Source: an uncultured Thermoplasmatales archaeon (GTDB taxonomy: Archaea > Thermoplasmatota > E2 > DHVEG-1). Taken from it: a DNA stretch of 64,000 nt. Where the stretch lies: positions 62,257 through 126,256 of the forward strand of contig CAZWZY010000001.1 in the NCBI GenBank assembly GCA_964638175.1, in the 5' to 3' direction. Numbering within the stretch: the first letter of the stretch is position 1; every line of letters begins with the position of its first letter. Position numbers and translations under genes: made by a program. Positions 12,361 through 51,965 of the stretch are shown piece after piece. The notes under the pieces were generated by a model. The model was not told the origin of the DNA. It made no database searches and worked only from the letters and a program-made list of their open reading frames with translations.

Positions 12361-12594
12361 GATGTTTCGCCTCCATATTTACATGCAATTCTTTTGACTT
12401 GAGCTTAGTATCTTAATATAAGAACCTCGGATGGGGAATGGTATCTTCTCCCCCTACTTAAGGATATTGGAATTAGATCCCATGCAGGGGAATTGTTAAT
12501 ATGTTTCGATGGTAATGATATTTTTCATCACTCAAAAAATTTAATATGTAAAAGATATACTGGCAATAGAAAAATTGACGTAGCGTGGTAAACA

Positions 12595-14676
12595 ATGTTT
12601 AAAAAAATCTCAGTAAGCATGCTTTGCGTTATCCTGTGCTGCTCACTTGTTGCCCCCTGGTCAGAAGCAACTACTACAGGGCACATCGACACTGGAGAAA
12701 TAACACTTAGTTATAGGAATGTAACCATATATGCTCCTGCCGTAGGAAAAACAGATACCGGCTATGTTGGTGTTATATCAACAATAACCGTTACTATCCA
12801 AGACAACGGCAGTGGACGGGTGTTTGTTGATACTCTTCCTCTCACTCAAATCGATATGCAGGGTTCTGCACGTCTTGCTGTAAAAGTTGCAAGCACTCTT
12901 GTTGAATGTGACAAGAATTGTAGCGTTGATCCTTCCACCCATGACTATTTCTTTGTGGTCAGAACGTCTGCTCCCATTATTGGTGGACCTTCGGCAGGCG
13001 GAATTATGACAGCGGCTACCATTGCACTGCTTGAAAACTGGCAGATGAGCAATTGGACCATGATGACTGGTATGATTAATCCAGATGGCAGTATTGGACC
13101 AGTTGGGGGCATCTTACAAAAGATAGACGCGGCATATTCTGTGGGTGCAACACGATTTCTAATACCAAAAGGACAGGGGGTGTACATGGAAACGGTAACA
13201 GAACGTGTAGAACAAAATGGATGGACACAGATTATTACCAAACAAGAACCCCGTTATGTCGCTGATTACGCAAAAGACAACTATGGAATGGAGGTTATTG
13301 AAGTCGGAGATATTAACGATGTTATCGGGTATTTCACAGGTTATAACTTTTCCCAAAAAGAAACTAATGGAAATATCACAACAGGAAACTACACCACATC
13401 TATGAAACCTCTTGCCGAAACACTACTTGAAGAGGCAACTGCCATTTATATGAATGCAAGTGATGCATTCAATGCCTCAGATATACCAAATTACTATCCG
13501 TTCCGTTACCAGAGTATTGTCGAAGATTTTCTCGTTGATGCAAAAAACGATCTAGACGGGGCACAATTGTGGCATGAGAGGGAACTATATTACTCAAGTA
13601 CAACCAAATCTTTTATATCGCTCATAAACTCGCGTTTTGTGTTATATGCTGCAGAATATTTTGAGGCAGACAACCGTGATAACTATATCGAGACGTTGCT
13701 GAGCGATGCAATAACCCTTTTTGAAGAGAATAGTGAACTTGCAAAAACAGCACATATTCATGGGGCGATTTCTCTGCAAACCGTCGGTGCCGCACAAAAG
13801 CGTGCCTTTGAAGCAGAAGAGCACATAAATGATGCGAGCGAAAGCTATGAAAATGATGTGTTAGGGGCACTCTATAGTATTGCACGAGCTATTGAACGAA
13901 GTAATAGTGTAAAGTGGTGGATTGGTATTGGCTCTTATTTCAACGATTCGGGGCATATCGATAATACAACATTAGAAAATCTTGCGGTTGAATATATTGA
14001 AGATACCCAACAAGCAGTTGCGTATTCAAGTATTATCCTCCAAGAGATTGGACAAACATCAACGTATCTCTCTGAAGCAGAGACGCTGTTAGAATCAGCA
14101 CGAGATGAACTAGAGAAGGGATATCCTGCTGCTTCGATGTTTGAAGCATTAGAAGCATTGGTAAAGGCAAACCTTGCTCTTGAGTTGGCAACAAGTACAA
14201 GCGAAGAAAAAATTACAAGGGCTCGGGAGAGTGCAAGCGGCAGCATCATTACGAGCAGGACACTAGGGATCGAGCCTGTTCTTGCAGTAAGTTATTATGA
14301 ACTAGCAACAACATACGAAAATGAATCAGATTTCGACGCGGCATTGGTATACTACAAATATAGTGATATTATTGCCGGTGCATTAAGATTTTCAAACTTT
14401 TCCTCAGACTCTTCATCATCTCGCTATGTAGGAATTCCTGAAGTAAATATACCTGCATTCACAACTACAAATCAATGCACGACATATCTTATATACATAG
14501 CAATATTTGGCGGAATTGCTGGTCTTGGCATCGGAATGATTGTTGCTGGTCTTGCAAGTAAAAAACAAGAAGAAAAAATAGTGAAAAAATGGGTACCGCG
14601 AAGTATCAATGACTACTATAATAAAAAACAAAAGAAGACTCGTAGTTTTGAACATCAAGTCCCCCCGAAGTATTGA
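12595..14676 (+). CDS. Secreted, C-terminally membrane-anchored protein with a Lon-type S16 protease domain and no AAA+ module
   Basis: Signal peptide. GGPSAGG…(43 residues)…GGILQK reproduces the Lon Ser-Lys dyad geometry of DGPSAG…GGLKEK. A ~400-aa uncharacterised domain carries many N-x-S/T sequons. One C-terminal TM helix is followed by a basic tail. Confidence 0.6.
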   Translation: MFKKISVSMLCVILCCSLVAPWSEATTTGHIDTGEITLSYRNVTIYAPAVGKTDTGYVGVISTITVTIQDNGSGRVFVDTLPLTQIDMQGSARLAVKVASTLVECDKNCSVDPSTHDYFFVVRTSAPIIGGPSAGGIMTAATIALLENWQMSNWTMMTGMINPDGSIGPVGGILQKIDAAYSVGATRFLIPKGQGVYMETVTERVEQNGWTQIITKQEPRYVADYAKDNYGMEVIEVGDINDVIGYFTGYNFSQKETNGNITTGNYTTSMKPLAETLLEEATAIYMNASDAFNASDIPNYYPFRYQSIVEDFLVDAKNDLDGAQLWHERELYYSSTTKSFISLINSRFVLYAAEYFEADNRDNYIETLLSDAITLFEENSELAKTAHIHGAISLQTVGAAQKRAFEAEEHINDASESYENDVLGALYSIARAIERSNSVKWWIGIGSYFNDSGHIDNTTLENLAVEYIEDTQQAVAYSSIILQEIGQTSTYLSEAETLLESARDELEKGYPAASMFEALEALVKANLALELATSTSEEKITRARESASGSIITSRTLGIEPVLAVSYYELATTYENESDFDAALVYYKYSDIIAGALRFSNFSSDSSSSRYVGIPEVNIPAFTTTNQCTTYLIYIAIFGGIAGLGIGMIVAGLASKKQEEKIVKKWVPRSINDYYNKKQKKTRSFEHQVPPKY

Positions 14677-14723
14677 AGATTACTACAAAAAAAACAAATA
14701 AGGCTTATCGTGTACATCTTTGA

Positions 14724-15779
14724 ATGCAACTTTCTGGAGAATTAATAGACACACACATTATCGTACGTAAAGCGAAAGACGTTGGCCGGCTCTATAATAA
14801 AAGTCATTTTGGAAAACTACTTACGGACAATATCTTACAACTAGATTTACTAGAGGGTGTCTTTCTTCTTGGGGAGCAGAAAATGCAGATTGTTGACGGG
14901 AAAAGAAACGTTACGTTTCAAGAACTGGTAATGCGTGCATCTCGACTGATTCCTTCATTCGAAATAAAGTATCTTCTTTTCAAGGGCCTGCGGAACAGAG
15001 GGCATGTAATACATCTTTGTGAAAAGGACGGGCCGGTCACTTTCCAGAAGAGAATGTCGTTTCAAGAACGAAAAACTGATAATGTATTTATTGTACCGTT
15101 TTCCGAAAGAGACATCTTTAATATTGAACAAACAAAGCAATTAGTAGCTGCGGCAAAAAAAAGGAAGGGGGTTCTTTGGTACGGCATCGTTGATGAAGAA
15201 GGGGACATCACATATTATGAAATTTCTGTAGTGACCCCAAGAGGGAAGGTACCGGCCCATGCATTTGCAAAGGGAAGTGGGTTATTACTTGAGAATCGAC
15301 TGGTTCTTTTTGAAACAAAATTAAGTAGAGATCTGCTAGAAAAAGAATTTTTTGGGAAGCTTTTTGGCAGTGGGCTGCAATTGTCTCTTGTAGAGGCGCT
15401 CTACCTTGCAAAGAATGATATTCTTACCATACATGACAAAAAAGGGGAAAAAATCTCCTTGAGGTCTTTTGAGAGAGATGTAACAGAAATACAACCGGAC
15501 ATAAACCTGCGGTTTATGGTATTTTCTGATTTGAAAAAACGAGGGTTGCTGGTCAAAACAGGGTTTAAATTTGGGGCTCATTTTCGTGCATATACACAAC
15601 AACCAGAGAGGGCTCATGCAGAATATCTTATTCATGTCGTTAACCAATCATTCTCAACCATCTGGGCAGAGATGAGCAGAGCGGTACGATTAGCACATTC
15701 TGTTAATAAGGAAATTCTTTTTGCTCAGACTGATGGAAAGAAAATAACATATGTCAAAATAGGGCGCCTTCGTCCATAA
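14724..15779 (+). CDS. endA: tRNA-splicing endonuclease, α2-type with duplicated domains
   Basis: C-terminal catalytic motif …KFGAHFRAY…HAEYLIHV… with a degenerate N-terminal repeat. The 351-aa length fits the euryarchaeal α2 type. Confidence 0.8.
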   Translation: MQLSGELIDTHIIVRKAKDVGRLYNKSHFGKLLTDNILQLDLLEGVFLLGEQKMQIVDGKRNVTFQELVMRASRLIPSFEIKYLLFKGLRNRGHVIHLCEKDGPVTFQKRMSFQERKTDNVFIVPFSERDIFNIEQTKQLVAAAKKRKGVLWYGIVDEEGDITYYEISVVTPRGKVPAHAFAKGSGLLLENRLVLFETKLSRDLLEKEFFGKLFGSGLQLSLVEALYLAKNDILTIHDKKGEKISLRSFERDVTEIQPDINLRFMVFSDLKKRGLLVKTGFKFGAHFRAYTQQPERAHAEYLIHVVNQSFSTIWAEMSRAVRLAHSVNKEILFAQTDGKKITYVKIGRLRP

Positions 15780-15829
15780 TTTTTTATAATCCTGTAGTCA
15801 TTAGGATGGTTTACCGGGGAGGAAAAAAT

Positions 15830-16468
15830 ATGTTACAAATACGATGGCATGGTCATGCTTGTTGGGAAATTACCGATGATATAACTGTTGTCACTGATCC
15901 GCACGATGGAAGATCTATCGGCATACCTGCGCCAAGTGTCGCAGGTGACATCATATTGATTTCGCATGATCACTATGATCATAATAGTGTGAAATCAGTT
16001 GAAAAAGAAGGGAGTAAAGTTGTTACCGATGAAAGAAAGCGAAATATCGAAAATGTAGAGATAAAAGGCATTCAAGCATTCCATGATGAATGTAGCGGCG
16101 AAAAGCGAGGGAAAAACATCATCTATAAGTTCGTTATAGATGGGGTTACTTTTTGCCATCTCGGTGATCTTGGCCACGACCTTGATGAGGGGCAAATCCA
16201 ACAGATTGGTGATGTTGATATTTTGTTTGTTCCTGTTGGAGGGACTTTTACTGTTGATGCTAAACAGGCATGGGATATTATCGAGAAGATAAGACCGAAA
16301 ATTACCATCCCTATGCACTACAAAATAGGAGGATTGTCACTACCTATTGCCAGTATTGATCCTTTTTTAGAAAAAAATAAACATCGACTTCTCAAAGTTG
16401 GCAATGAGATCGATATCGAAAAAGAAGATTTACCTACAGAACCAGAGGTCTGGACATTTACTCTTTAG
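15830..16468 (+). CDS. MBL-fold metal-dependent hydrolase (UPF0173-like)
   Basis: WHGHACWEI…ILISHDHYDHN motifs. GGGAGG lies 8 nt upstream of this ATG; the track ORF starts 24 nt earlier. Confidence 0.75.
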   Translation: MLQIRWHGHACWEITDDITVVTDPHDGRSIGIPAPSVAGDIILISHDHYDHNSVKSVEKEGSKVVTDERKRNIENVEIKGIQAFHDECSGEKRGKNIIYKFVIDGVTFCHLGDLGHDLDEGQIQQIGDVDILFVPVGGTFTVDAKQAWDIIEKIRPKITIPMHYKIGGLSLPIASIDPFLEKNKHRLLKVGNEIDIEKEDLPTEPEVWTFTL

Positions 16469-16669
16469 GCATACGATATTGAACAAGAGGAATACTTCCA
16501 AGATGTCTATCATACATCCAGGGGATTTGGAAAAACCAGATAAGTGTGCCGTTATTATACTCCTGTATAAACGGAAATTGTTTCATGTATATTACCTTCT
16601 TTAGTTTTCAGGTGATTATTATGTTTATATTTAAATATTTTTATATCGATGAGGAATATAATGATACAA

Positions 16670-17638
16670 TTAACGGTCAAACACCTCAGGGTTGACGCAG
16701 TTGCGAGGTTTTTTGGCTTCAAGTCCGTCCATCATATTCTCTGCTGCTATGAGGGCCATCTTCGTTCTTGTCTCAATTGTTGCTGAAGCGGAATGGGGTT
16801 GTAAAACGACATTATCAAGTTTTTTTAACTCTTCAGGGATGCGGGGTTCGTGTTCGTACACATCTAGTCCTGCTCCAAAAATCCATTGTTGGCGAAGTGC
16901 CTTAAGTAACGCTTTTTCATCAACAACAGGCCCTCGAGAGGTATTGATAAGAATGGCAGTGTTTTTCATCATCTTCAATTCATCTTGTCCAATCAGACGA
17001 TGTGTTGATTTCACCAAGGGGACATGAATGGAGATAAAATCAGATTTTCTAAGCAATTCATGTAGTGGTACTTTTTTTGCTCCTACTTCTTGTTCAAGAG
17101 ATACATTCTTTTTCCTATCAGTATACAACACAGGCATGTTGAATCCTCTACTCTTCAGGGCAACTGCTGTACCAATTCTCCCTGCGCCGACAATACCTAG
17201 GGTTTTGTTACTTACATCCTGCCCAAGCATGAGTAATGGGGCCCAACCTGAAAACTTACCGACTCTGGTGAAATTGTCTCCTTCAACAATACGTCTTGCG
17301 ACAGCAAACAAAAGCGCCCACGCCATTTCTGCTGTTGTATCAGTCAATACATCGGGCGTATTGCTCACCGGTATGCCTTGTTTTGTCGCAATATCGACAT
17401 CAATATTGTCGTATCCCACTGCATAGTTGGCAATCATTTTAAGATCTGGGTTTGAGGAAATGACCTCCTCATCAACGGTGTCAGTCAGCAGACAAAGCAA
17501 CCCCTGTTTTCCCTTAAGACCTTTCATAATTTCCTGCTTTGAAAGAACGCGATCGTGTGGATTGACTTCTAGCCCAACATGTCTCTTCAGTAAATCAAGT
17601 CCTGGCTGCGGAATTTTTCTTGTGACAAAAACGTTCAT
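16670..17638 (-). CDS. gyaR: Glyoxylate/hydroxypyruvate reductase (D-2-hydroxyacid dehydrogenase family)
   Basis: GIVGAGRIG NAD motif and a 2-hydroxyacid dehydrogenase catalytic region (…RG…E…H…). Confidence 0.8.
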   Translation of the reverse strand: MNVFVTRKIPQPGLDLLKRHVGLEVNPHDRVLSKQEIMKGLKGKQGLLCLLTDTVDEEVISSNPDLKMIANYAVGYDNIDVDIATKQGIPVSNTPDVLTDTTAEMAWALLFAVARRIVEGDNFTRVGKFSGWAPLLMLGQDVSNKTLGIVGAGRIGTAVALKSRGFNMPVLYTDRKKNVSLEQEVGAKKVPLHELLRKSDFISIHVPLVKSTHRLIGQDELKMMKNTAILINTSRGPVVDEKALLKALRQQWIFGAGLDVYEHEPRIPEELKKLDNVVLQPHSASATIETRTKMALIAAENMMDGLEAKKPRNCVNPEVFDR

Positions 17639-17684: not shown

Positions 17685-18137
17685 CTATAGTTGCTCTTTA
17701 ATCGTTTCAAAACAGGCGAAGGTTACTGTTTTTCCTACTCCTTGAAGTTGACGGAGTTTGTCCACCACCAATTTTCCAATATCTTCCAACGATTTTCCCC
17801 TCACTTTTAATAAGAGGTCATACTCACCAGAAATGATATGGACTTCATAAACTCCAGGAAATTTTGTTATTCGTTTAGCAAGTTGACGTTGAGACACATC
17901 AGGATTAGGCAAGAAAGAAATAAAAATAAATACTTCTGAAGGAAAACCGATTTTTTGATAATCAATGGTGACATTAAATGATTTGATGACTCCTCGCTCC
18001 ATCAGCTTCTGAATGCGATCGTGGACAGTTACTCGCGGGATGTTAATATGTTTTGCTATGGATTTGGTTGATTGTCGTGCATTTTTTTTCAATTCTGAAA
18101 GGATCAATTCGTCTTTTTTATCTATCATGTTCGTCAT
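17685..18137 (-). CDS. asnC: Lrp/AsnC-family transcriptional regulator
   Basis: N-terminal HTH (…LSELKKNARQSTKSIAKHINIPRVTVHDRIQKL…) plus a C-terminal RAM domain. Divergent from asnA. Confidence 0.85.
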   Translation of the reverse strand: MTNMIDKKDELILSELKKNARQSTKSIAKHINIPRVTVHDRIQKLMERGVIKSFNVTIDYQKIGFPSEVFIFISFLPNPDVSQRQLAKRITKFPGVYEVHIISGEYDLLLKVRGKSLEDIGKLVVDKLRQLQGVGKTVTFACFETIKEQL

Positions 18138-18234
18138 TATGTCGATTTATATATTTATATTTTATCGTTTAACTGTATTATTGTCAATATATTAGACATA
18201 GTGTTTAAATAATGTTTTTTACAAATACGATACT

Positions 18235-19140
18235 ATGAAAACACAAGATGTGGAAAAAACCAAAGCTATTATGAAAATACAAAGTGAAATACGGCATGTT
18301 CTGGCTACAGAATTACGAAAGCGAGGGTTTATTGAACTTTCACCAGTGATATTATCCCCAATTACTGACCCGTTGAATCACCCTACAACGCCGATGCACA
18401 TTACATGCTATGGTAACAAATATAATCTTACTCAGAGTATGATCTTCCACAAACAGCTTGCATTACGATCATTGGATAAAATTTTCATTTTTTCCCCAAA
18501 TGTTCGCATTGAATCATTTGAACAGAAAGACACAGGAAGACATCTCTTTGAATTTTCTCAACTTGATTTGGAAGTAAAAGGAGCAACACGGGAGGAGATG
18601 ATGTCTTTGTGTGAAGAATTGTTAGTGACCATTATAACATCGCTAAAAAAACAATGCAAAAAAGAATTGGAATGGATAGGTCGGAAACTCCAGGTGCCAA
18701 AAATTCCTTTCAGAAGAGTTACCTATTGTAATGCACGTAAGCAATATGGTGATAAATTCGAAACGATGATTTCCCAAACACATGCAGAACCAGTATGGAT
18801 CATTGATATTCCTCTAAGTAAACGGGAATTTTATGATAGAGAAGACGAAAAGAATCCAGGATACCTCAGAGATATGGATTTAATTTATCCAGAAGGATAT
18901 GGAGAGGCGCTTTCTGGCGGAGAACGTGAATATGAATATACCCGAATTAAAAAACGAATTCATCAAAAAGGACAACGATTATCATTATTTGCTCCGTATC
19001 TTCAAGTAGCAAAAAACGGTTTACCTCCATCAGCAGGATTTGGTATTGGAATTGAGCGTTTGACACGATTTATTTGTGGGTTGCCCCATATAAAAGAAGC
19101 GTGCCTTTTTCCAAAAATACCTGGAGAAAGATGTCTTTAA
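18235..19140 (+). CDS. asnA: Archaeal AsnA-type asparagine synthetase (class II aaRS catalytic core without anticodon-binding domain)
   Basis: Class II synthetase motifs (…FEFSQLDLEV… motif 2; …GFGIGIERLTRFICG… motif 3) in a 301-aa protein. Confidence 0.7.
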   Translation: MKTQDVEKTKAIMKIQSEIRHVLATELRKRGFIELSPVILSPITDPLNHPTTPMHITCYGNKYNLTQSMIFHKQLALRSLDKIFIFSPNVRIESFEQKDTGRHLFEFSQLDLEVKGATREEMMSLCEELLVTIITSLKKQCKKELEWIGRKLQVPKIPFRRVTYCNARKQYGDKFETMISQTHAEPVWIIDIPLSKREFYDREDEKNPGYLRDMDLIYPEGYGEALSGGEREYEYTRIKKRIHQKGQRLSLFAPYLQVAKNGLPPSAGFGIGIERLTRFICGLPHIKEACLFPKIPGERCL

Positions 19141-51311: not shown

Positions 51312-51965
51312 ATGGACCTAAAATATTATTCCCTATTCCTTTCCATCGTTGGCATTCTTATTTTGTATGGTTTGTCCCTGCTCGCTCAACCAACCGTCGT
51401 AACACTTGCAGAGCTTCCGCACTACGAAGGAAAACAGGTTATTACTAAGGGGATTGTTGTCGAAAAGTATCAAACAAAATACGATAGCAACCTCATTGTA
51501 TTGAAAGAAAACAACACTACTGCAACAGTCTTTGTGGAAGGGACGCTCTCTTTTGTTATAGAATATGGCGATCTTCTTCAGGCAGAAGGGACAGTACAAC
51601 AATATAAAAATGAATGGGAGGTCGTTGTCGATGACGAAAAACAAGTAACCCTTCTTAAAAAGTGGCAAAACACCTCATTTCCTCTTTGGCAACTTGCAGA
51701 AGATCCAGAACGATATAAGGATACAAACGTCAATGTTACCGGTTATGTGGATGTTATTTATGACACCTATTTTTATCTCATAGACGAAGGAGAATTACAC
51801 TCCCTTGTTGTTTTTTGTACGACGACACAATATGACGCCCTTTTTCCAGGTGAGAAGGTCAGTGTTGCTGCCACCTTTCTCTTTGATGAACGCACTTTCC
51901 GTTATGGGCTAGATATTAACAAAGACGCTCATGGCATTACATCTATTAAAGGGGAGGATATATGA
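51312..51965 (+). CDS. Membrane-anchored protein with tandem OB-fold (BOF/YgiW-like) domains
   Basis: N-terminal TM (LFLSIVGILILYGLSLLA) then two …G.V…vidD….G…V… OB-like segments. Overlaps the downstream TctA-like gene by 4 nt. Confidence 0.4.
   Translation: MDLKYYSLFLSIVGILILYGLSLLAQPTVVTLAELPHYEGKQVITKGIVVEKYQTKYDSNLIVLKENNTTATVFVEGTLSFVIEYGDLLQAEGTVQQYKNEWEVVVDDEKQVTLLKKWQNTSFPLWQLAEDPERYKDTNVNVTGYVDVIYDTYFYLIDEGELHSLVVFCTTTQYDALFPGEKVSVAATFLFDERTFRYGLDINKDAHGITSIKGEDI

Follow-up and report, generated by a model that had tools for sequence, protein, structure and literature searches.

A predicted membrane-tethered, ATPase-less Lon-type (S16) peptidase of a Thermoplasmatales archaeon belongs to the catalogued archaeal S16.A12 family

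What might a Lon-type (S16) protease domain do on the outside of an archaeal cell when no ATPase accompanies it? This question is raised by a gene for a 693-aa protein in a 64,000-nucleotide stretch of contig CAZWZY010000001.1 from an uncultured Thermoplasmatales archaeon (hereafter the window, whose positions are used throughout). The initial annotation had described the product as a signal-peptide-bearing, membrane-anchored and sequon-rich protein with an extracytoplasmic Lon domain, and had presented this combination as a system not described before. Our analysis supported the fold, the lack of an ATPase and the topology, but not the claim of novelty: on sequence comparison the gene is a typical member of the MEROPS S16.A12 family. 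An active S16 peptidase at the cell surface is, in our view, very probable. Our best explanation, held with moderate confidence, is that the protein, a Ser-Lys endopeptidase tethered to the membrane and independent of an energy source, cleaves exported proteins in a housekeeping role at the cell surface, and any specific biological role is put forward tentatively.

The protease motifs carry the assignment to the Lon fold. GGPSAGG begins at residue 130 and GGILQK at residue 171, and the 43 residues between Ser133 and Lys176 equal the spacing of S679 and K722 in E. coli Lon, as had been read from the sequence at the outset. In HMMER alignments with Lon protease domains of solved structure, the two motifs fall on those that hold the catalytic Ser and Lys. 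Pfam Lon_C matched residues 80-207 above its curated gathering cutoff (38.2 vs 21.1 bits, E 1.4e-9), and a family profile compared with the PDB retrieved Lon protease domains (P-domains) at E 1e-18 to 1e-9, placing the protein within the Lon protease-domain fold as defined by Pfam Lon_C and MEROPS S16. Across 91 family sequences at ~30-87% identity, GGPSAG, T158-G159, D164, G171-G172 and K176 were all invariant (91/91).

Structure prediction recovered the same fold. A first AlphaFold (AF2) run with a shallow alignment gave the protease domain a predicted local distance difference test score (pLDDT) of 71.7, with low confidence in the active-site loops. The ectodomain (residues 26-625), modelled from an alignment of 91 sequences that took in distant relatives, reached a pLDDT of 89.7 and a predicted template modelling score (pTM) of 0.88. 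Structure comparison of the model gave figures of 19.0 for M. jannaschii, 18.9 for A. fulgidus and 18.4 for T. onnurineus LonB, followed by BrxL (17.7), MtaLonC (17.5), RadA (16.6) and ComM (15.9) and, lower, by CalpL (14.2) and birnavirus VP4 (~10). Foldseek agreed on the Lon fold, and the best structural matches were true proteases. Because the model fits active Lon domains, it is unlikely that Ser133 and Lys176 are separated in space in the predicted dyad. A Lon-like domain might instead serve for binding or as a scaffold, as in RadA/Sms or ComM, which would make the protein a surface receptor or a structural component; the invariance of Ser133, Lys176, Thr158 and the surrounding GGPSAG and GG residues, together with the true proteases at the head of the structural matches, argues against such a non-catalytic role and renders it very improbable. 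The modelled domain also contains a 26-residue beta-hairpin that follows the LIPKGQ strand and is missing from some family members, for example P0022. We take this hairpin to be an insertion relative to canonical Lon, presuming the spacing of E. coli Lon.

No AAA+ family was found in Pfam or NCBIfam searches of the protease open reading frame (ORF), and no P-loop motif G....GK[ST] occurs in it, in keeping with the initial annotation. NCBIfam models of LonA, LonB, LonC and SepM matched the protease part only, at 25-44 bits vs cutoffs of 200-891. The Lon equivalogs among them, which describe ATP-dependent LonA and LonB (cutoffs 517-891), likewise matched at 25-44 bits through their C-terminal protease parts only, and the N-terminal AAA+ module with Walker A and B motifs that marks this class is absent. 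The Lon domain begins ~15 residues past the predicted signal peptide.

The hydropathy of the ORF has its maxima at residues 1-25 and 628-655, that is, at both termini only. The first of these, which begins with MFKK and ends in S-E-A, is a predicted cleavable signal peptide, and among homologues the n-region pattern M-x-K-K-I and the S-x-A site are kept (alignment A1). The second is a predicted transmembrane (TM) anchor leading into a tail with 12 K/R vs 4 D/E, so that both ends of the protein read as they had been described initially. An identical protein in the public record (P0001) has its start called at Met9, which gives 685 aa and omits the MFKK n-region (12595-12618); conservation of that n-region makes the 693-aa start the better supported one.

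Sequons of the N-x-S/T type are enriched in the protein, with 13 present vs 5.7 +/- 2.1 in shuffled sequences (p ~0.002), and their density is the highest among the 44 window ORFs of at least 200 aa (1.88 vs a median of 0.25 per 100 aa). Four lie in the protease domain and nine after the Lon domain; the enrichment noted initially was thus real, whereas the placement of at least 12 sequons in a ~400-aa region was slightly off. Within the close subfamily, positions 42, 71, 148, 287, 293, 450 and 576 each have a sequon in 69% or more of the sequences, and the ectodomain is probably N-glycosylated.

Charge distribution and sequons together would put the protease domain outside the membrane. Nearly all full-length family members have a hydrophobic C-terminal anchor. 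In the P. abyssi orthologue the end matches CGP-CTERM (TIGR04288) at 22 bits vs a cutoff of 21 and is preceded by a Thr-rich linker, and the P. furiosus orthologue carries a CGP-CTERM signal according to its NCBI name. CGP-CTERM is a tripartite surface-attachment signal specific to Thermococcales (bioRxiv 10.1101/2023.06.07.544157), and its presence in these orthologues gives independent support for an outside location of the family; the window protein itself gave no match to TIGR04288. If the topology had been misread, the N-terminal hydrophobic stretch would be no export signal and the protease domain would be cytoplasmic. This is hardly credible in view of the positive charge on the cytoplasmic side at both ends (MFKK and the K/R residues of the tail), the enriched and positionally conserved sequons, the conserved S-x-A cleavage motif, the CGP-CTERM signals of the P. 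abyssi and P. furiosus orthologues and the Thr-rich linker of the P. abyssi one.

Between the Lon domain and the anchor lies the part that the initial annotation had called an uncharacterised region of ~400 aa. This region, which holds nine sequons by our count, is helical and well folded in the models: residues 264-600 form twelve long helices, with AF2 block-mean pLDDT of ~86-98 across most of the domain. Its halves, residues 268-442 and 458-600, are homologous in a profile-profile comparison (hhalign probability 90.6%, E 1.3e-6, 140 columns), and the helical domain (13384-14394) is therefore the product of an internal duplication. Y333, S337, R403, R435, W442, Y477, P561 and E569 are invariant or nearly so within it. 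No specific relative of the 12-helix domain was found among solved structures. The ectodomain pTM suggests a fixed arrangement of the Lon head and the helical stalk. The coordinates of these and the remaining features of the locus are given in Table 1.

Table 1 Features of the protease locus (window positions; residues numbered from the 693-aa start)
Feature	Position	Strand	Remarks
Divergent spacer between pycB (-) and the protease gene	12361..12594	.	234 bp
A/T-rich TATA-like stretch aaaaaatttaatat	~50 bp upstream of ATG		predicted from sequence
Protease gene	12595..14676	+	ATG start, 693 codons + TGA as read
Predicted signal peptide, residues 1-25	12595..12669	+	MFKK, hydrophobic core, S-E-A; predicted cleavage before T26
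Lon (S16) proteolytic domain, residues ~40-250	12712..13344	+	
Predicted catalytic Ser133 codon (GGPSAG)	12991..12993	+	invariant 91/91; aligned to catalytic Ser motif of Lon structures
Thr158 codon (MTGM)	13066-13068	+	also invariant
Predicted catalytic Lys176 codon (GGILQK)	13120..13122	+	invariant 91/91; aligned to Lon catalytic Lys motif
Beta-hairpin insertion in Lon domain, 26 residues (196-221)	13180..13257	+	models: strands 196-207 and 210-221
Helical ectodomain, first half, residues 264-448	13384..13938	+	six long helices
Helical ectodomain, second half, residues 457-600	13963..14394	+	six helices
Linker/stalk, residues 601-627	14395..14475	+	33% Ser/Thr; low model confidence; holds conserved SRYVGIPE; leads to TM helix
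Predicted C-terminal TM helix, residues 628-653	14476..14553	+	hydropathy; helix 628-653 in first model
Predicted cytoplasmic tail, residues 654-693	14554..14673	+	12 K/R vs 4 D/E in 40 residues
Tail motif, first copy VPRSINDYYNKK	14593-14628	+	in frame
C6 run and second tail-motif copy	14661..14701	+	+1 frame from 14663 encodes PRSIEDYYKKNK*

The family to which this protein belongs is broad. A word-indexed search returned >1500 relatives; the best 120 share 54-100% identity with the query, measure ~640-740 aa (mostly 680-710), all contain Lon_C, and come from Thermoplasmatota metagenome-assembled genomes (MAGs), where they are labelled "hypothetical protein" or "S16 family serine protease". 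HMMER against 50%-identity representatives gave 2889 matches, with 356 clusters at E<=1e-30. Many of these representatives are 600-700 aa long and align to query residues ~40-650 at 28-40% identity; conservation thus extends to the complete architecture (alignment A2), which is kept down to ~25-30% identity. When one genome was scanned for each GTDB species, at least 560 loci were found in at least 560 species genomes. The best 80 of these belong to Thermoplasmatota, except that one bears the label Thermococci. With a profile built from distant members we found cultured Thermococcales (Pyrococcus abyssi, P. furiosus, P. kukulkanii, Thermococcus spp. and Palaeococcus) as well as Methanofastidiosum, Aenigmatarchaeota and Nanoarchaeota; cluster look-ups of the distant representatives yielded almost no taxonomy. 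Many Thermococcus and Pyrococcus members (P0282, P0292, P0299, P0301, P0326 and others) are annotated as 'ATP-dependent protease', which their sequence contradicts; one Methanofastidiosum member is labelled 'Archaeal Lon protease'. One member, P0256, is about twice the normal length (1295 aa), with the family region at residues 20-556 followed by ~700 residues of other sequence.

Two matches tie the window protein to the catalogued family. P. furiosus AAL81562.1 is 33% identical over residues 41-590 (E 3e-88), with homology across the entire ectodomain, and we infer from the accession numbering and the matching descriptions that it is PF1438. The peptidase unit of T. litoralis (MER0361629) is 51% identical to the Lon domain (E 6e-60). 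By these matches the protein falls in MEROPS S16.A12 (PF1438 type), NCBI's "S16 family serine protease". COG1750, "archaeal serine protease", is presumably a further name of the family. The list that Rawlings published in 2013 of 42 putative peptidases which are uncharacterised, have the widest distribution and deserve priority for study includes S16.A12, "PF1438 (P. furiosus)", an identifier assigned to 270 sequences (PMC3625958). The T. litoralis unit is listed under the PF1438 holotype, and in a crude screen its truncated form raised the extractable protein from Arthrospira but not the peptides (PMC11742843). Reviews of archaeal membrane proteases cover LonB, signal peptidases, rhomboids and others and leave this family out (PMC4343526). 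What remains of the initial claim that no such system had been described is that the family is uncharacterised; it has been catalogued, and its extracellular nature has long been guessed.

With S16.A12/PF1438 proteins the window protein has in common a signal peptide at the start, an anchor at the C-terminus and, between them, the Lon head and the duplicated helical domain. In P. abyssi and P. furiosus the C-terminal end is a CGP-CTERM signal, whereas its own Thermoplasmatota subfamily ends in a plain TM helix and a PRSIxDYYKKxK tail. YlbL of B. subtilis and SepM of streptococci are likewise membrane-anchored and ATPase-less, with a Ser-Lys Lon domain outside, but are anchored by an N-terminal TM segment and carry a PDZ domain (PMC6051672). 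In the window protein the order is Lon domain, helical domain of 340 aa and then the anchor, which is thus at the C-terminus, and no PDZ domain was matched in the Pfam search; NF041438 (SepM/YlbL) matched the Lon part only, at 29.8 bits vs a cutoff of 200, which leaves the protein outside that group.

LonB of T. onnurineus, A. fulgidus and T. kodakarensis has one or two TM segments and ATPase and protease domains that face the cytoplasm (PMC4343526), its TM segments lying within the AAA+ module (PMC3391209); the window protein has no AAA+ module, a protease domain predicted to face outward, and hydrophobic segments at its termini only, and is thus no archaeal LonB. The catalytic motif differs too, being G-P-S-A-G here and G-D-S-A-S/T in LonB. 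The former is presumably LonA-like. LonC (Meiothermus taiwanensis MtaLonC and T. thermophilus TTC1975) retains at its N-terminus a large AAA-like, ATPase-dead domain, builds a hexameric chamber and lacks any TM region (PMC3391209), so that it is presumably cytoplasmic; nothing like its AAA-like domain precedes the Lon domain of the window protein, which therefore does not belong to the MtaLonC type. Birnavirus VP4, CalpL (SAVED-Lon) and BrxL are Lon-fold Ser-Lys proteases of viral polyprotein processing or antiphage signalling. A defence function of the BrxL, CalpL or CARF-Lon kind was rejected: PADLOC gave only a marginal CARF-Lon match by way of the Lon domain (E 8e-4), and no defence genes were found near the protease gene.

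In the Thermoplasmatota subfamily the predicted cytoplasmic end carries (V/I)P(R/K)SIxDYYKKxK in one or two copies (alignment A1). This motif was found only in the protease gene across ~0.85 Mb of related loci, which ruled out a general C-terminal sorting signal. Its KKxK ending formally resembles the eukaryotic KKxx di-lysine tail, probably by coincidence. As assembled, the reading frame ends ...HQVPPKY* with its stop at 14674-14676, while the +1 frame encodes PRSIEDYYKKNK*, the exact C-terminus of an 86%-identical homologue and one that close homologues conserve. DNA alignment showed that the C6 run (14661-14666) has one base more than the gene of this homologue, and that the 40 nt past the extra base are 100% identical to its DNA. 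An independently assembled contig (L081) has the same C6 reading, and may come from the same population as the window. The apparent frameshift is either a homopolymer, sequencing or assembly error or a very recent mutation, and the ancestral product would have been ~700 aa long, its tail being truncated as read. The window gene is, in sum, an ordinary family member plus this apparent tail frameshift.

The initial annotation had placed the gene divergent from the pyc operon across 234 bp, and the spacer to pycB was found at exactly this length. The divergent pycB layout recurs in 37 of the 80 related loci. Among relatives at >=47% identity (~50 loci), a tRNA-splicing endonuclease gene follows the protease gene; genes for an MBL-fold protein and a 2-hydroxyacid dehydrogenase are usually downstream as well, and pycB, pycA and birA lie divergently upstream. 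The block of the protease gene, endA, the MBL-fold gene and the divergent 2-hydroxyacid dehydrogenase gene is syntenic in ~45-50 genomes (window 14724-17638; L001-L054). In the window endA encodes a two-unit tRNA-splicing endonuclease of 351 aa and begins after a 47-bp gap; given this gap, co-transcription with the protease gene is possible, and a functional link between the two was rejected as implausible. Relatives at ~40% identity have other housekeeping neighbours, which we read from sequence, without a family search, as CDP-alcohol phosphatidyltransferase-like, adenylate-kinase-like and serine-hydroxymethyltransferase-like. Genes for transporters, S-layer proteins, glycosylation or a possible substrate were not consistent neighbours in the ~80 loci, and the synteny reads as lineage inheritance rather than as a functional operon. 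Three complete MAG chromosomes contributed a single protease locus each to the best 80. At least one MAG, CAZVNH01, has two paralogues on separate contigs (L017 and L039, 54% and 56% identical to the query), so the family is not strictly single-copy.

How, then, would such a protein work? We propose a type-I membrane protein that would be exported by its cleavable signal peptide and held by its C-terminal TM helix, the basic tail remaining in the cytoplasm. The Lon-fold head, with the Ser133-Lys176 dyad and the conserved Thr158, would sit outside the membrane, packed on the rigid 12-helix domain, which the Ser/Thr-rich stalk would join to the membrane. Because the protein has no ATPase and there is no ATP outside the cell, cleavage would be limited to accessible, extended or unfolded polypeptide segments, as in ATPase-less Lon relatives. 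Degradation of unfolded substrates needs no ATP in the case of isolated Lon P-domains, TkLonB and LonC (PMC3391209), and YlbL and SepM cleave specific membrane or secreted substrates (YneA and CSP-21, respectively); by analogy with these enzymes the protein is probably an endopeptidase acting on unfolded exported segments. The helical domain, standing in place of the Lon AAA+ ring or the YlbL/SepM PDZ domain, may serve in substrate selection, gating and/or oligomerisation. The role would be housekeeping, namely the processing or clearance of exported, membrane-proximal surface proteins, and not the bulk digestion of food protein.

Several points weigh against this explanation. The signal peptide is a prediction from hydropathy and conservation only. 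The YlbL ectodomain was inactive in vitro (PMC6051672), and by analogy the protein may be active only at the membrane, as an oligomer or together with a partner. The neighbourhoods in the ~80 loci gave no functional partner or substrate for the protease. No study of a full-length member, be it biochemical, structural or genetic, came up in our literature search, and the sole experimental use that it returned is the crude, indirect screen of the truncated T. litoralis unit.

A nutritional exoprotease, which at the cell surface would break down protein from the environment or from detritus and so supply peptide transporters, would fit with the peptide fermentation of Thermococcales and with the proposal that sedimentary Thermoplasmatota degrade protein (PMC6461988). 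Work on T. gammatolerans grouped tg2111, an 'archaeal serine protease' and candidate member of the family, with pyrolysin and subtilisin homologues as substrate-assimilating (PMC2718504), and the T. litoralis unit altered the extraction of protein from algal biomass, although without a rise in released peptides (PMC11742843). We nevertheless infer a housekeeping function in preference to nutrition, because the family is always tethered to the membrane and never found free, has apparently one copy per chromosome in the complete MAGs sampled, lies among housekeeping genes, has no peptide transporter adjacent to it in the ~80 loci, and is kept in small-genome DPANN and methanogen-related lineages (Methanofastidiosa), and because the content of extracellular peptidase genes shows no relation to protein catabolism in archaeal MAGs and predicts it poorly (PMC9123169). 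A mainly nutritional function is, on this evidence, unlikely, though it deserves some weight.

The protein might also be a dedicated, site-1-type processing protease for one exported or membrane substrate, with the tail linking it to a cytoplasmic partner. The nearest functional precedents, SepM and YlbL, are substrate-specific; the large non-catalytic domain is conserved and has invariant polar residues (R403, R435, W442, Y477 and E569); and the PRSIxDYYKKxK tail is conserved and specific to the protease gene. That tail is, however, confined to the Thermoplasmatota subfamily while the ectodomain is conserved far more widely, and no candidate substrate gene is a conserved neighbour in the ~80 loci, which leaves a single dedicated substrate quite unlikely. 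The favoured explanation, a housekeeping endopeptidase for exported proteins, can be carried one step further, into a speculative and decidedly doubtful form: the Lon heads might come together, like Lon P-domains, in a ring outside the membrane, with the duplicated helical domains walling a gated chamber beneath it, and in Thermoplasmatota the PRSIxDYYKKxK tail might bind a cytoplasmic partner that controls activity or placement from inside. Such an assembly, if it exists, would be an ATP-independent, self-compartmentalised archaeal counterpart of DegP/Tsp-type envelope quality control.

Other features of the window were recorded alongside. A 98-aa antisense ORF (12945-13241, minus strand) lies inside the protease gene and recurs in 12 homologous loci; since it is opposite the Gly/Pro-rich active-site region, codon composition most likely accounts for it, and it is probably no gene. 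At 17685-19140 a 301-aa protein has the class II aminoacyl-tRNA synthetase catalytic core only (tRNA-synt_2), without an anticodon-binding domain, and may be no tRNA synthetase but an amidoligase of the AsnA kind; its gene is divergent from that of an Lrp/AsnC regulator, and the pair is kept in eight related loci. A 217-aa ORF at 51312-51965, with one hydrophobic segment, four sequons (the second-highest density in the window) and no Pfam match, may encode another small surface glycoprotein.

Extracytoplasmic proteolysis in archaea is poorly understood, yet this protease family is widespread. Its presence in the cultivable and genetically tractable Thermococcales makes it a good experimental target. 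The substrates of the family would show how archaea mature or clear their surface proteins without ATP, and its role would help to judge whether counts of "extracellular peptidases" in sediment MAGs mean protein feeding.

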